Below are positions 241-17,606 of a stretch of DNA of 64,000 nt, piece by piece; position 1 is the stretch's first letter, and each line of letters opens with the position of its first letter. The DNA is from Biomphalaria glabrata (lineage: Eukaryota). The notes under the pieces are model-generated. The model was not told where the DNA came from. It did not search any database and was given only the letters and a program-made list of their open reading frames with translations. Both the position numbers and the translations under genes were made by a program. The DNA is taken from contig NC_074716.1 in NCBI RefSeq assembly GCF_947242115.1, positions 24,048,637-24,112,636 of the forward strand, written 5' to 3'.

Positions 241-335
241 CATTTAGCTTCTGCAATGATCTCATGAATTTCCCCTTTCTAGCTATACTTTAATGTTACT
301 ATTAACAATCTTTAAATTTTGTTCTTCTGTTGCAG

Positions 336-490
336 GTTTCCTTATACAAAAGTTTGACTGTCTGACTTGTGCTGAGGGGGACACTTTCTGTCTGTCGAAT
401 TGTATCTTCACCATCTTCCCAACCAATTTGTGCTCTAACTGTCTGCCCACTGACTTTCAGTGTTTGTCGTCTTGCAAGCTGATTGGATGA
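336..490 (+). CDS. Terminal coding exon of cysteine-rich secreted peptide gene E (partial gene). Encodes (G)FLIQKFDCLTCAEGDTFCLSNCIFTIFPTNLCSNCLPTDFQCLSSCKLIG*
   Basis: Acceptor ttttgttcttctgttgcag at 317-335. Two C-x2-C-x6-C-x3-C modules. CLPTDF[QS]C motif shared with gene A. C-terminal Gly is a possible amidation donor. Exon 1 is not found in the window. Alternative: the contiguous ORF 293-490 starting MLLLTIFKFCSSVAG. Confidence 0.45.
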
Positions 491-1924
491 TGTGGTCACG
501 TGTTATGTGCTACTGAAGGACATTTGGTTTATGTATGACATTGTATGTGAATATGTTAATGTGTTAGAATTGTGCTGGTATTCAACTATAAGGGTATCAA
601 GAAACTAAAGACTGTCTTGGACAAAATATGCCGTGTTTAGTTGCGAATTGCTTTTTAATGCTATCGACACTTTTCAAAACACTTACATTGAAAGTTGTTT
701 TCTGTTTTTAAAGTAAGGAGTCCTACTAGAACAATATTTTGTAGCTTGGAACAAAGAAACACCTGAAAAATTCAGTTGTTTATAAAAGAGAGAGCCCAAA
801 CTCAGTTTCTAACGTTTCTGTTCTTAAATTAGAAGCAAGCTAACTCTAGTCTACATTTTGAAATTTTGAGGATTTTTTGTTTTGTTTCAGTGTACCTCGA
901 GTTTCTTCCTTCATTTCTACGGTCCCTTTTATGCCCAGCGCCACCCAACCGCCCCCATTGTGCCGAGCGCCCCCTAACCCTTCCTTTTGACTCCCAGCGC
1001 TCCCAAATATCAAGAAATCGCTCCCAGTGGGGCGCTAGACCCCGTTGAAGAACACTAACAATAATAATGTGCAATTACAAATATTTTTACTGGTTGCTTA
1101 AATCTAGCGCAATTTCATGCTTTTAACTTTCTCAGTACGCTATGGTCCTATACCTTGTTTGGACCAGTTCTAAAGGGGTAGGGGAGAAAAAAGGAGGTAT
1201 CTGGGTGATCGATTTTTGAATACATTTATTAAAAAAAAGGTAAACGACCTGAATTCGAAGTCGAGGGCTAAAGCCTCCTCAGCCTCATCAAGCCAATACT
1301 CTAACCAATGTGCCATGTTTGTGAAAATAGAAGGTTTATTAATTATCTATTGTTAGTTTCAAATTTTCCTCTCTACAAAGTATAAAGGGGACTAATTCAG
1401 TTTATACCACCACATCAGTCAACATCAGTCAAGTACAATTTCTTATCTTTTTTTTTTAGATACCAAACAAAAAAAATATTACCAATAGTTAACTAACTAA
1501 TTGGATATTTTTTTTTATTGATTCTTGTGTTGTCAGGTAAAATAAATAATTGTGTAAACTTTCATCTTGATCCGAGATCGGAAGTTGGAGAAATAACATG
1601 TACAAACATTTTACAAGATAGTCCTATACATAGAACTAAAGATCACAATGGATAGAATTAAATGGAACATTAACATTCGTGAGTGAGGTGAAGTGAAGTA
1701 TCTTACAATGGAGTATTCTGGAACGTTCATTGTAGAAACACCTTTGAAAGTGTAGTCGTAAAGGAATTATCAAAGTATCAAAAATCAAATTGTGTTTCAG
1801 ACACAATTCTAACAATCCAAATCAATGAACTTAGGCATGGTAATACCAGACATGGTTTTGAGGTTTTATTCTGTCACTGCGAACTTTAACTCTTCCCTTT
1901 GAAAGTCAATCTTTCTTCCATCTT

Positions 1925-2172
1925 TTCAATTTGGAGCTATAGGTCAGATGATGAAAAGGTCATCTGTTTATGTGGCCTACGGTTTACGAGGGTGTCACGT
2001 GGCCGACACATCGACCAACCACCTTTACTTTTCCCCAACTAATGTCAAGTACCCATTAGAGATGGGTGGACTCAGAGGCGGCCAAAGATCCCGAAATTAA
2101 AAATCTCAGTCTTCAACAGAATTCGAACCGGGGACCCCCAGCGCTTTACCGCTCAGCCACCGCACAACTGCA
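1925..2172 (-). mobile_element. tRNA-derived SINE copy, same family as 55963-56222, minus orientation
   Basis: Reverse complement matches the tRNA-like head (A and B boxes, GGTTCGAAT) and the body motif ggtcgttgtgctggccacatgac of the other copies. Confidence 0.7.
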
Positions 2173-2303
2173 GCTATAGCCTAATAATGACAGCAAAACA
2201 CGATTTTAGACTATTCCTGACTGTTTATCTATTTATTTGTATTTTTTTTTATGCCAGAAGATAGTAAAAAAAATATCTTTGACCTATTTTTACTGAAACA
2301 TTC

Positions 2304-2312
2304 TAAATATAG
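2304..2312 (+). promoter_or_regulatory. TATA-like element (taaatatag) ~70 bp upstream of the gene A start codon
   Basis: Position relative to the ATG at 2374. Weak sequence-only evidence. Confidence 0.25.
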
Positions 2313-2373
2313 AGCTCGCGGTTTTGTGAAAACATAAGGCGGACTAACTGCACAGAATTATTCAATTAGAACA

Positions 2374-2428
2374 ATGAAGCTGGTAATAGTCCTTGTTTTC
2401 ATAGCCGTAACATCCGGGATCTCTACAG
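2374..2428 (+). CDS. Gene A exon 1: signal peptide MKLVIVLVFIAVTSGIST, ends in phase 1, donor gtaatac
   Basis: ATG followed by a hydrophobic 18-aa stretch. Canonical GT donor at 2429. The phase-1 junction with the exon at 3174 reconstitutes a GCT codon and a continuous ORF. Confidence 0.6.
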
Positions 2429-2776
2429 GTAATACAACATCATCAATTATCTAATGTATGCGATGTTTTAAGGGATTGTTATTTTAAAAAACTACTTCAA
2501 TTGAAACGTACACTTGACTGATGCTGATAATATTCTAACTAGTATGTAACTGACTTTATTTTTTTTTTACAATCTAAATTCTTGGTAGTTAAACCCAGCG
2601 GCTACATTATAAGATCCTGAATGTTGTTAAAATATCGATCTTTGAAAGACCGAACTGAAGACTTCATGCACAGCTTTGAATACATGTAGTATTATGTTGG
2701 TAAGAGAGGTTTGGTAATTGTGCATACCTGACAACGTCGTGGACTATTCGTCACTTGATCTTTAATTTTAATACCT

Positions 2777-2778
<2 letters not shown>

Positions 2779-15166: not shown

Positions 15167-15174
15167 TATATAAG
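15167..15174 (+). promoter_or_regulatory. TATA box (tatataag) ~89 bp upstream of the gene D start codon
   Basis: Canonical TATAWAAG at the expected distance from the ATG at 15256. Confidence 0.35.
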
Positions 15175-15255
15175 GTTTGGTGTTTGTAAGTCCATTCATT
15201 GGATCGCCATCCATTTGTGATCGACCTCTTCACGTCCACGAACAAAATAAAGAAG

Positions 15256-15307
15256 ATGAAGATCTTTCTGGTCACACTTGTGGCAGTGACACTCTGCCTA
15301 GCTCAAG
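15256..15307 (+). CDS. Gene D exon 1: signal peptide MKIFLVTLVAVTLCLAQ, ends in phase 1, donor gtagac
   Basis: ATG with a hydrophobic core and a GT donor at 15308. Joining to 16507 gives GGT (Gly). Confidence 0.6.
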
Positions 15308-15611
15308 GTAGACAAACTTGACCAATGTATTGTTTTCAGGAATTAATACGTTTATTTGTTCATCTTTTTACTTTGTAAACATTTTAGGGACACGACTTGT
15401 TATCGCTCTCGTTTTGTTCAAGAACCTGTTATACTAATATATATACAACGAATGTATCTAGTAGAGTTGGGTACTAATGAAGTGAATTACACTTTATTCC
15501 TCGTTTGCGTTGGTCACTATTAAACATTTTGCTTTATTTTGACTATTACATCCAATAAAATATTAATGTTATAAACATGTTTAACTTTTATACCAACAAG
15601 GCTTTTAGTAG

Positions 15612-15890
15612 AACTAGACTCAAGTATTACTACTACTAAGAAAGCTGTAATAGAAATAGACTCAAGTATTACTACTACTAAGAAAGCTGTAATAGAAATA
15701 GACTCAAGTATTACTACTACTAAGAAAGCTGTAATAGAAATAGACTCAAGTATTACTACTACTAAGAAAGCTGTAATAGAAATAGACTCAAGTATTACTA
15801 CTACTAAGAAAGCTGTAATAGAAATAGACTCAAGTATTACTACTACTAAGAAAGCTGTAATAGAAATAGACTAAGGTATTACTACTACTA
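15612..15890. repeat. Minisatellite, 40-bp unit (aatagactcaagtattactactactaagaaagctgtaatag) x7, inside gene D intron 1
   Basis: Direct reading. Confidence 0.9.
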
Positions 15891-16506
15891 GAAGTAGGGC
15901 TTGGGTAAAAAAAGACAAAAATAAACTTTAAGGGCGAAACCAATATGCAATGAATGATTTTAGTATTCTTAGTAATTGACATCAATCAAAAATATTGTCA
16001 TACTCTGACTTATGCCTAGAACGTAAAGAGTAGTTACCAAGAGTAATTAACTAGCACCTTTAGTGTTTTATGTACTTCTGAAGGTCACCGAACAATTAGA
16101 GACCCTTTCTTTGTTGTAGATAGTCCTAATTAATTAAACTCACTTTAACTTTTTACACAATAAGATTAAAACACAGCAACATGATCAGTTTTAATTTTTA
16201 TAGGCAAAAAATACAGTCCTAGAAAAAAAAAAGAAAGCAATATTGAGAAATGAAAATGTGGAAGCGGTATTAAGAAATCTAAGAAAAACATTTTAAAAGA
16301 TTGTTCATTACTGAATTATATGGGCACATTATACATTGTAACATTTCTATAACTTTATACACCAAAAATCTATTTTTAGGCGTCCAAATAATTTATTGTT
16401 TCTTTTTTGCATATAAATAATGTTTGTCTTCTTTAATGCCTTTCATCTTTAAATGAAAAGTTTTGTAACGATGAAATATGATGATTGTTAAAACACCTCA
16501 ATACAG

Positions 16507-16614
16507 GTGCAGCTGTCCACGACCTGCCAGCTCCTAATGGATTGTCATCACGGTTCAGAAGACAAGTGGATTGTCGAACTTGTGATAGAAACACATTCAC
16601 TTGCTCTGGTGTTT
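16507..16614 (+). CDS. Gene D exon 2: (G)AAVHDLPAPNGLSSRFRRQVDCRTCDRNTFTCSGV, ends in phase 1, donor gtaagt
   Basis: Acceptor cctcaatacag. Furin-like RFRRQ site precedes the Cys-rich region. DCRTC parallels DCLTC in genes A and E. Confidence 0.6.
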
Positions 16615-17511
16615 GTAAGTAAATTTAATGATCATAACTTGAAATCTGTGTCACTGTAAAGTGGGATGCTAATATATTCCGTGAAGTCGCTCTTGAGATA
16701 AAGAAACTCTTTGATCTTCAGTTTTTTTAAGTTTTGAAACAACGCCAGTGTCATTTTTTTACGGTAATTTGTCAAGTAATTCAACTAATTTAGCATCATT
16801 CTAGAACCATCTACCGGATTTTCGCGCATATATTCGCACAAGCGTATTCCCCGGACACACTTATTCCACGCACAAAATATGTGAAAACTAAATCGTACAA
16901 CCCGAATTCTTATATACCCCGCATGTGCACAGCGTGACTTGTTGTAAACTACCTAACATAAAGTACTTTCATCAGTACTCTTTGTTCTCTTGAAGTTTAG
17001 AATGAGATGTTCAGAATGTACATTTCACAACCACACAGTGAACTATAAGAGATATGATAATGAAGACCCACCGGTATCTCTTTAGTGACCATTATGCTAT
17101 GTTTATGAGTAAAATACATTTTGTAAACCCCGCACCTTTTTATACCACTCGCAGCTGCCATTCTTTTGTAAAACCTGTATAACCCGCGGGTTATATGCTC
17201 GACCATGTTTGCAATATCTGCAGAAGTATAGCGATGTTTACTAGCAATTAAAACTAGAAGATTGAATTAATATTTATCACCAGTGCCAAATTCTTTCTGA
17301 TTCTTTAATTAATCATGACCTCAATATAGAGTAACACATATCTATCTACACTTTATCGCTATGACAAAATCTTGTTCAAGTATAGTAATTATATATTTCC
17401 ATTTCATTTGATCTCACTTTTGACATTGGTTTGTTACATTCATGATGCTATTTTAAAGCATTGATTTGTTATTGTTGTTATTTAACCAAGTAAATAAATT
17501 TTACTTTATAG

Positions 17512-17606
17512 GTCAGTACTACTTGAACGCATGTCTCTCTGGATGTGACATAATCCCATCTCTATATTGTAAACGAGACTGTTACGTGAAATATTCCAAA
17601 GCCTGA
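17512..17606 (+). CDS. Gene D exon 3: (C)QYYLNACLSGCDIIPSLYCKRDCYVKYSKA*
   Basis: Acceptor ttttactttatag. The split codon t|gt gives Cys and completes the module CSGVC. AATAAA ~100 bp downstream (17706). Total 8 Cys in the predicted mature peptide. Confidence 0.55.

Follow-up and report, generated by a model that had tools for sequence, protein, structure and literature searches.

A tandem cluster of small genes for predicted secreted peptides with a four-cysteine module in Biomphalaria

We confirm that about 17 kb of DNA of the snail Biomphalaria glabrata holds a cluster of five small genes, here called A to E, for predicted secreted cysteine-rich peptides. The cluster lies in a 64-kb stretch of contig NC_074716.1 (positions 24,048,637 to 24,112,636), which is the whole of the DNA analysed and is called the window below, its first letter being position 1. 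The cysteine-rich parts of the products have in common a module of 14-15 residues with the spacing C-x2-C-x5/6-C-x3-C. There are at least five such genes in B. glabrata and a sixth member, F, in Biomphalaria pfeifferi, with one to three copies of the module in each. That the members of the cluster are real, constrained and related coding genes is, in our judgement, very likely. The fuller reading, namely a lineage-restricted tandem cluster of secreted four-cysteine-module peptides, including a mechanism for their maturation and evolution by duplication and loss, has a probability of about 0.7 when taken whole; the specific fold and the processing steps proposed within it are tentative.

Gene models and cluster layout

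The gene models were rebuilt from the coordinates of an earlier note on this DNA, which had proposed five separate secreted-peptide genes with a common plan of signal exon, phase-1 intron and cysteine-rich exon, and were then translated. All five sets of coordinates and junctions check out: the translations hold no internal stop, and every intron runs from GT to AG. The models comprise the following features.

336..490, + strand: gene E, terminal Cys exon, acceptor-bounded, 50 codons; modules at 359-403 and 431-475; ends ...KLIG-stop
2374..2428, + strand: gene A, exon 1; predicted signal peptide MKLVIVLVFIAVTSGIST, phase-1 donor; mean Kyte-Doolittle value of the core 3.8
3174..3421, + strand: gene A, exon 2; three modules, at 3203-3247, 3272-3316 and 3350-3391
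3530..3535, + strand: gene A, poly(A) signal AATAAA, 109 nucleotides past the stop
10695..10749, - strand: gene B, exon 1; predicted signal peptide MKVLLIVLVVVLSLVFSN, phase-1 donor; same exon and donor in the annotated model P0003
10099..10238, - strand: gene B, exon 2; module CTTCVYFNTTCPFNC at 10174-10218, then the C-x-C variant module CDCTNPVVGCVVMC
10071..10076, - strand: gene B, polyadenylation-type signal ATTAAA, 23 nucleotides past the stop
12488..12542, + strand: gene C, exon 1; predicted signal peptide MSFLTFALILLLLCSIKG, phase-1 donor; 100% identical in B. pfeifferi
13089..13195, + strand: gene C, exon 2; one module at 13106-13150 plus an extra Cys
13279..13284, + strand: gene C, poly(A) signal AATAAA, 84 nucleotides past the stop
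15167..15173, + strand: gene D, TATATAA box, 89 nucleotides upstream of the ATG
15256..15307, + strand: gene D, exon 1; predicted signal peptide MKIFLVTLVAVTLCLAQ, phase-1 donor
16507..16614, + strand: gene D, exon 2; pro-region ending in RFRR, then the module CRTCDRNTFTCSGV(C)
17512..17606, + strand: gene D, exon 3 (model); completes the Cys codon; variant module CLSGC-x7-CKRDC
17705-17710, + strand: gene D, poly(A) signal AATAAA, 99 nucleotides downstream of exon 3

The first exons of A to D have a common layout of M(K), a hydrophobic stretch and small residues. The second residue is Lys in A, B and D, positions -3 and -1 beside the exon boundary are taken by small residues, and the hydrophobic cores have mean Kyte-Doolittle values of 2.8-4.1. 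By these heuristics, we predict that the N-terminal exons encode cleavable signal peptides. Each of the four ends one nucleotide into a codon (G/CT for Ala in A, and G/GA or G/GT for Gly in B, C and D), and the exon of gene E opens with GT, the two bases that complete such a split codon. Since phase-1 introns at signal-peptide boundaries are a general trait of secreted-protein genes, the shared intron phase fits common descent without being diagnostic by itself. Poly(A) signals lie 23-109 nucleotides past the stops of A, B, C and D. A reading of the five units as exons of a single gene was rejected: B runs opposite to the others, and each gene from A to D comes with an ATG, a signal exon, a stop and a poly(A) signal of its own.

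Gene A specifies 100 residues, with RR and RRRR between its modules and the C-terminus ...SVGK, and gene B specifies 64, with its stop codon at 10099-10101. Gene C encodes a product of 53 residues that ends in GRAV. In gene D a second phase-1 intron may split the codon for the fourth Cys (T/GT); alternatively, read-through completes it and gives ...CK-stop. The single-module peptide would have the sequence QVDCRTCDRNTFTCSGVC. We favour the three-exon model of D, which gives 84 residues and an even Cys count (8), because the gtaagt donor is kept in B. pfeifferi, where exon 2 is 96.3% identical, and splicing restores the fourth Cys; moreover, exon 3 adds a related module, and the poly(A) signal follows exon 3, not exon 2. 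Since exon 2 can also be read through its donor to a stop, exon 3 should be taken as a model and not as a fact. For gene E, a candidate signal exon (MTIQVLLFLLLACCH followed by G and gtaac, phase 1) occurs at 4503-4548 of the corresponding locus of a B. glabrata M-line assembly (L002), ~3.1 kb upstream of the window start and 3.4 kb upstream of the E Cys exon. It is kept in B. pfeifferi as MMVMVFLFLLLACSH followed by G, at ~8773-8818 of the syntenic locus L001.

The four-cysteine module

A six-frame scan of the whole window finds the strict form of the module eight times, and all eight copies fall inside the five genes (three in A, two in E, and one each in B, C and D). Block-shuffled sequence gave a mean of 0.16 copies and a maximum of one; the enrichment in the window is far beyond chance. 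The remaining 46 kb of the window yielded no further modules, and in two other B. glabrata assemblies the upstream 7.6 kb held none but those of E. The spacing is C-x2-C-x6-C-x3-C in seven of the eight, often with an Asp before the module and a Thr before the second Cys. In addition to the strict copies there are variant modules: the second modules of both B and the B. pfeifferi member F have a C-x-C form (with loops x6 and x5), and D carries a C-x3-C form. The predicted mature parts contain 12 cysteines in A, 8 each in B, E and the three-exon model of D, and 5 in C.

In a five-way alignment of the paralogues four Cys columns are invariant, with identities to A of 23-43%. A and E are clearly related in sequence (BLASTP E=8e-6), with CLPTDF present in both. 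The signal exons are as divergent among the paralogues as the other parts. This framework of four-Cys modules in tandem appears to be undescribed so far.

Conservation and selection between two Biomphalaria species

The comparison with B. pfeifferi uses locus L001, which covers eight exons of the cluster and is colinear with window positions 814-17382 at 83-91.5% identity. The exons differ at 28 of 820 positions (96.6% identity), against 1092 of 10453 in the other aligned DNA (89.6%; Fisher p=4e-13). All eight exceed this non-exon mean, and seven are better conserved than their own introns, the exception being the Cys exon of C. Of the differences in the coding frames, 16 are synonymous and 11 non-synonymous. 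The proportion of synonymous differences (pS, 0.086) is close to the non-coding divergence, and that of non-synonymous differences (pN) is 0.018, giving a pooled pN/pS of 0.21 (binomial test against neutrality, p=6e-5). Exon 2 of A is 97.6% identical with a pN/pS of 0.32, and B differs by 5 synonymous and 0 non-synonymous substitutions. At the protein level A is 96% identical between the species (its counterpart being the B. pfeifferi “hypothetical protein Bpfe_017749”) and B is 100% identical, and A, B and exons 1-2 of D are intact in B. pfeifferi. Because of the pooled ratio and the purely synonymous differences in B, we conclude from the sequences that the members of the cluster are constrained coding genes under purifying selection, not chance open reading frames (ORFs).

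The earlier note had named an absence of conservation in related genomes as the mark of chance ORFs; in B. pfeifferi we find instead conserved exons with the above pN/pS. Together with the motif enrichment, the pooled ratio and the independent annotation of A and of intron 1 of B (see below), this supports its proposal of five separate small secreted-peptide genes. Its description of the genes as fast-evolving does not hold for the orthologues of A and B, which are nearly or wholly identical in protein sequence; only the paralogues are very divergent. Its suggestion of birth-and-death evolution finds support in differences of gene content, for in B. pfeifferi the E Cys exon is missing, C is disrupted and F is an extra member.

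More specifically, B. pfeifferi is without the 3.66-kb interval that carries the E Cys exon, which would reflect either gene loss in that species or a gain in B. glabrata. F lies at L001 ~3031-3218 (+), ~5.7 kb further upstream than the E signal exon, and has the modules CEYCQAGKVQCLNNC and CICGDNKVCKDLC behind a good acceptor. No signal exon for F was found in the 3 kb upstream of it in L001, and in B. glabrata the 7.6 kb that precede the window showed no counterpart of F. The difference in gene content between the two species fits birth-and-death evolution, and we read the locus as an old cluster that has evolved in this way and whose surviving orthologues now appear constrained.

Annotation of the cluster

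The window DNA is 96-99% identical to two B. glabrata M-line assemblies. Protein A is identical to the B. glabrata “hypothetical protein BgiMline_015979/008785” of GenBank, and independent pipelines have called gene A in three assemblies. By exact-sequence look-up, the exact B, C and D proteins (including the short variant of D) are absent from all collections, and only A is recorded. One M-line assembly has a 111-residue gene call, P0003, that starts from the ATG of gene B. We rebuilt its sequence by enumerating splice models, and the profile search described below later returned exactly that sequence. P0003 uses the predicted exon 1, intron 1 and exon 2 of gene B, which independently matches the first intron as originally proposed, and then splices out the B stop into a third exon. 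This exon (L003:18681-18826) sits inside a 1.2-kb insertion (L003:17650-18884) that is absent from the window haplotype and has no copy in the window. Hence, in the window haplotype gene B must end at its own stop, and P0003 probably arose in annotation as a chimera whose third exon derives from the insertion. For transcripts across the predicted junctions, these evidence-weighted models of A (three assemblies) and B (one assembly) are indirect support. The gene annotation of B. pfeifferi combined BRAKER, PASA and RNA sequencing (PMC10075465). All told, one of the five genes is correctly annotated (A), one is chimeric (B), and three are without a predicted protein that we could find.

Laboratory work on the snail hosts of human schistosomiasis relies mainly on B. 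glabrata as its model; the species transmits Schistosoma mansoni, and its secreted effector repertoire is under intensive study. Current gene sets largely overlook a family of constrained, predicted secreted-peptide genes at this locus. With no predicted protein found for three of the five and one chimeric, these genes would be missed by work built on such gene sets, for instance differential expression, proteomics and candidate lists from genome-wide association studies. The finding, though not surprising in principle, should be useful for Biomphalaria immunology, neurobiology and genome annotation. The locus is also a clear small case of birth-and-death evolution between two vector species, and its compact four-Cys scaffold in tandem is of possible interest to peptide chemists.

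Search for relatives

None of the five proteins matched a Pfam family, even at E<=10. A family profile built from the five sequences (HMMER) and run against 1.84 billion representative proteins returned only A (P0001, 80 bits) and the B chimera (P0003, 82 bits). A word-indexed homologue search with A found only the B. pfeifferi orthologue cluster; with a concatenation of B, C, D and E it found nothing, but it also missed the existing P0003 and is hence a weak negative. A sequence profile search of the PDB gave nothing significant, and its best match, a gonadotropin cystine knot (E=0.11), was judged to be due to chance. Foldseek found no match with E<5 in the PDB for the AlphaFold model of A, itself of low confidence. 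Literature searches on these sequences and on Cys-rich or secreted Biomphalaria peptides brought up no account of the family, and those on conotoxin-like peptides and neuropeptide precursors were equally empty.

The Pfam, profile and PDB searches thus agree with the earlier note, which had recognised no named family in these sequences. By these comparisons the cluster is without a detectable relative among predicted proteins outside the genus Biomphalaria. Absence from protein databases is no proof of absence in other snails, because three of the five genes are missing from the Biomphalaria protein sets themselves.

A model for the peptides and its rivals

We favour a model in which the products are secreted, partly processed, disulfide-stabilised peptides that would act outside the cell. 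The predicted signal peptide of the first exon would be cleaved as it directs the product into the secretory pathway and the endoplasmic reticulum (ER). Each module would then be oxidised to two disulfides, pinning a short C-x3-C helix to the C-x2-C half and forming a cysteine-stabilised-helix mini-fold about as large as apamin, endothelin or an alpha-conotoxin. Two disulfides per module are suggested because A, B, D and E have Cys counts divisible by four (12, 8, 8, 8), and the mini-fold because a helix is predicted on C-x3-C: in the AlphaFold model of A, each C-x3-C segment is helical (predicted local distance difference test, pLDDT, 64.7), and the models of A and D (pLDDT 52.9 for D) are all-helical with no strands. 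The processing motifs consist of RR, RRRR and the terminal GK in A, RFRR in D, the final G of E and the GRAV end of C. Proprotein convertases could cut D at RFRR, ahead of its module, and A at the RR and RRRR between its modules, releasing single two-disulfide peptides, and the terminal Gly, Gly-Lys and Gly-Arg of E, A and C, respectively, could be converted to C-terminal amides. B and E, which lack basic sites, would stay two-module mini-proteins. The final products may serve as extracellular signalling or defence effectors, or may act in reproduction. The cluster itself would have evolved by duplication, gain and loss of modules and loss of genes, amid transposable elements and minisatellites. 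In its most specific form, which holds the genes to be a new Biomphalaria-restricted (possibly planorbid-restricted) family with its own Cys framework and with processed, amidated immune or signalling peptides as products, we would give this model slightly less than an even chance.

Several observations weigh against the model or parts of it. The signal peptides were assessed by heuristics alone, the disulfides, their connectivity and the helix content are predictions, and both AlphaFold models are of low to moderate confidence. B, C and E contain no internal basic pairs, such that the release of single modules is not a general rule, and the choice between signalling and defence is a guess. 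In the collections searched, we found no predicted protein for C, D or E. Gene C is the most problematic member: the odd Cys count of its mature part (5) leaves the fifth unpaired, its Cys exon is hardly more similar to B. pfeifferi than its own intron (95.3% vs 95.1%), and in that species the fourth Cys of the module is replaced by Tyr and a 1-bp insertion alters the C-terminus. In one species at least, gene C may thus be undergoing decay. As for gene D, reading through the donor of exon 2 leads to a TAA stop at 16620-16622 (...CSGVCK-stop), and L001 ends before exon 3, placing that exon outside the cross-species comparison.

Among the rival explanations, one accepts the genes as real and secreted but holds that their products are not cut into bioactive peptides: as whole mini-proteins of several disulfide-rich modules they might form part of the mucus, the egg mass, the seminal fluid or the shell matrix, or else be small inhibitors, and the basic runs of A would simply belong to helical linkers. 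B and E, with two modules and no basic cleavage site between them, are in keeping with this, as is the single continuous helix that AlphaFold places across the RRRR linker of A (residues 62-79); tandem lineage-restricted secreted genes are also typical of reproductive and extracellular-matrix proteins. However, the AlphaFold models are of low confidence, D presents a textbook series of pro-region, RFRR and single module, and the ends of A (GK), E (G) and C (GR) are of the amidation type that is typical of processed peptides. On balance we regard intact mini-proteins as unlikely for the cluster, though worth keeping in view.

That the ORFs are chance frames or dead relics in repeat-rich, AT-rich DNA, with the annotated A as the only gene, is scarcely credible. 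The missing protein predictions for C, D and E and the damaged look of C in B. pfeifferi would be in its favour, but annotation pipelines routinely miss short genes. Moreover, the confinement of all eight motifs to the five models where 0.16 are expected, the conservation of seven of the eight exons relative to their introns and of all eight relative to the non-exon mean, and the synonymous excess, at its plainest in B, all speak for genes, as do the splice sites, ATG, stops and poly(A) signals, which are in place, and the intact state of A, B and exons 1-2 of D in B. pfeifferi. Very improbable, too, if a little less so, is the notion that the C-x2-C...C-x3-C units are metal-binding, zinc-knuckle-like sites. 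It draws on the spacing CX2CX6CX3C, which is exactly that of the zinc-finger-like C-block of the plant LOB-domain (LBD) proteins (PMC3585328). Yet the hydrophobic, signal-like first exons imply folding in the oxidising ER, no Pfam match, to the LOB domain or otherwise, is seen at E<=10, and the snail proteins hold nothing besides the modules, whereas the LOB family is plant-specific and nuclear.

Intergenic DNA and other features of the window

The intergenic DNA is packed with repeats, as had been claimed: it holds several minisatellites and two dinucleotide microsatellites, together with copies of a dispersed repeat resembling a short interspersed element (SINE) and a transposase remnant.

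1940-2175: SINE-like dispersed repeat
2928-3029, - strand: SINE-like dispersed repeat
55967-56195, - strand: SINE-like dispersed repeat
56449-56648, - strand: SINE-like dispersed repeat
4193-4435, - strand: remnant of a hAT transposase C-terminal dimerisation domain (Pfam PF05699, E=5.5e-6), between genes A and B

One copy of the SINE-like repeat directly precedes gene A, and the A intron contains another that is partial and inverted. ARAGORN detected no tRNA in these repeats and Rfam did not recognise them; across the whole window Rfam gave no matches.

B. glabrata haplotypes differ by insertions of 1.2 kb and >5 kb. The M-line locus L002 (15900-21028) diverges wholly past window position ~7545, with >5 kb unmatched; this large insertion or rearrangement downstream of gene A is haplotype-specific, and gene B falls outside L002. 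Farther along the window, a 4.4-kb minisatellite (24533-28941) has a 38-bp unit in ~115 copies with 94% matches, a raised GC content of 0.45-0.48 and a strong strand skew, and a 1.8-kb array (50015-51810) has the 16-bp unit TGAGTTAATGAGCTAG in ~113 copies, which gives that 2-kb bin an extreme GC skew of +0.76. A non-long-terminal-repeat (non-LTR) retrotransposon remnant at 32567-34993 (+) consists of adjacent ORFs for an endonuclease (PF14529, E=6e-9) and a reverse transcriptase (PF00078, E=5.5e-40). At 46507-48397 (-) there is a 494-residue ORF (46719-48203) with no Pfam match. It sits between two short ORFs of near-identical sequence, at 46507-46623 and 48281-48397, which read HEETNDF.PRRE.IWR.CTQGRCPLCLSCLYVNKR.CPR. 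This arrangement suggests a repeat-bounded mobile element of unassigned type.

Comparison with known systems

The earlier note had likened these genes to conotoxin-like, defensin-like and neuropeptide-like ones. As an analogy of gene design this stands, but none of the comparisons made here points to membership in any of those families. For the conotoxin superfamilies, no Pfam family was found at E<=10 and the profile matched only the two Biomphalaria proteins; the four-Cys conotoxin frameworks I, X and XIV have CC-C-C or other spacings and are not known to have C-x2-C-x6-C-x3-C. For the defensins, big defensins and macins, antimicrobial peptides with six to eight Cys in a CS-alpha-beta arrangement, there was no Pfam match either, and the snail proteins have four-Cys modules and, for A and D, AlphaFold models without strands.

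The only literature match for the spacing of the snail module is the C-block of the plant LOB domain, with which seven of the eight modules are identical in Cys spacing. That C-block belongs to a nuclear, plant-specific DNA-binding domain of ~100 residues. The snail proteins, in contrast, are 53-100 residues long, consist of modules only and have signal-like N-terminal exons; no full LOB domain, with its GAS block, leucine-zipper-like region and nuclear location, is evident, and Pfam gave no match at E<=10. Kinship with the LOB domain was hence rejected and the shared spacing taken as a coincidence, given the signal exons and the lack of a LOB profile match.

Like multi-copy neuropeptide and prohormone precursors, the snail proteins have a predicted signal peptide, units split by RR or RRRR (in A), a pro-region ending in RFRR (in D) and a C-terminal Gly, alone or with Lys or Arg, in A, E and C. 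Unlike them, B, C and E are without internal basic sites, and the profile search of the 1.84 billion representatives returned no homologue among the bilaterian neuropeptide families.

There is also a likeness in build to the class of apamin, mast cell degranulating (MCD) peptide and tertiapin, all from bee venom, and of endothelin and sarafotoxin, in which the spacing is C-x-C-x7-9-C-x3-C (C-x-C-x7-C-x3-C in apamin and endothelin). The snail modules likewise have four Cys over ~15 residues ending in C-x3-C, a segment predicted to be helical in the model of A (pLDDT 64.7); the second modules of B and F have the C-x-C form, and the precursors share a predicted signal, putative basic processing sites and Gly-Lys-type amidation termini. 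They differ in being mostly C-x2-C-x6, in lacking sequence similarity and in having tandem repeats within one precursor. With the main spacing C-x2-C-x6-C-x3-C and no Pfam match, the signature of the class is absent. We thus see the resemblance as one of possible working only, and membership as not supported.

Lineage-specific clusters of Cys-rich peptide genes are common in molluscs. The MgCRP-I family of Mytilus is one such lineage-restricted family of secreted Cys-rich peptides (PMC4558851). The Biomphalaria cluster resembles MgCRP-I and conotoxin-type genes in its small precursors, in which a predicted signal peptide is followed by a mature peptide with a Cys framework, in being a multigene family of narrow taxonomic range, and in that certain members (in the snail, D) carry a pro-region that includes a basic cleavage site. 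Neither Pfam nor the profile search showed similarity to any conotoxin or other family. Two features set the snail genes apart from these systems: their unit is a four-Cys module repeated one to three times, and their signal exons are as divergent as the rest.

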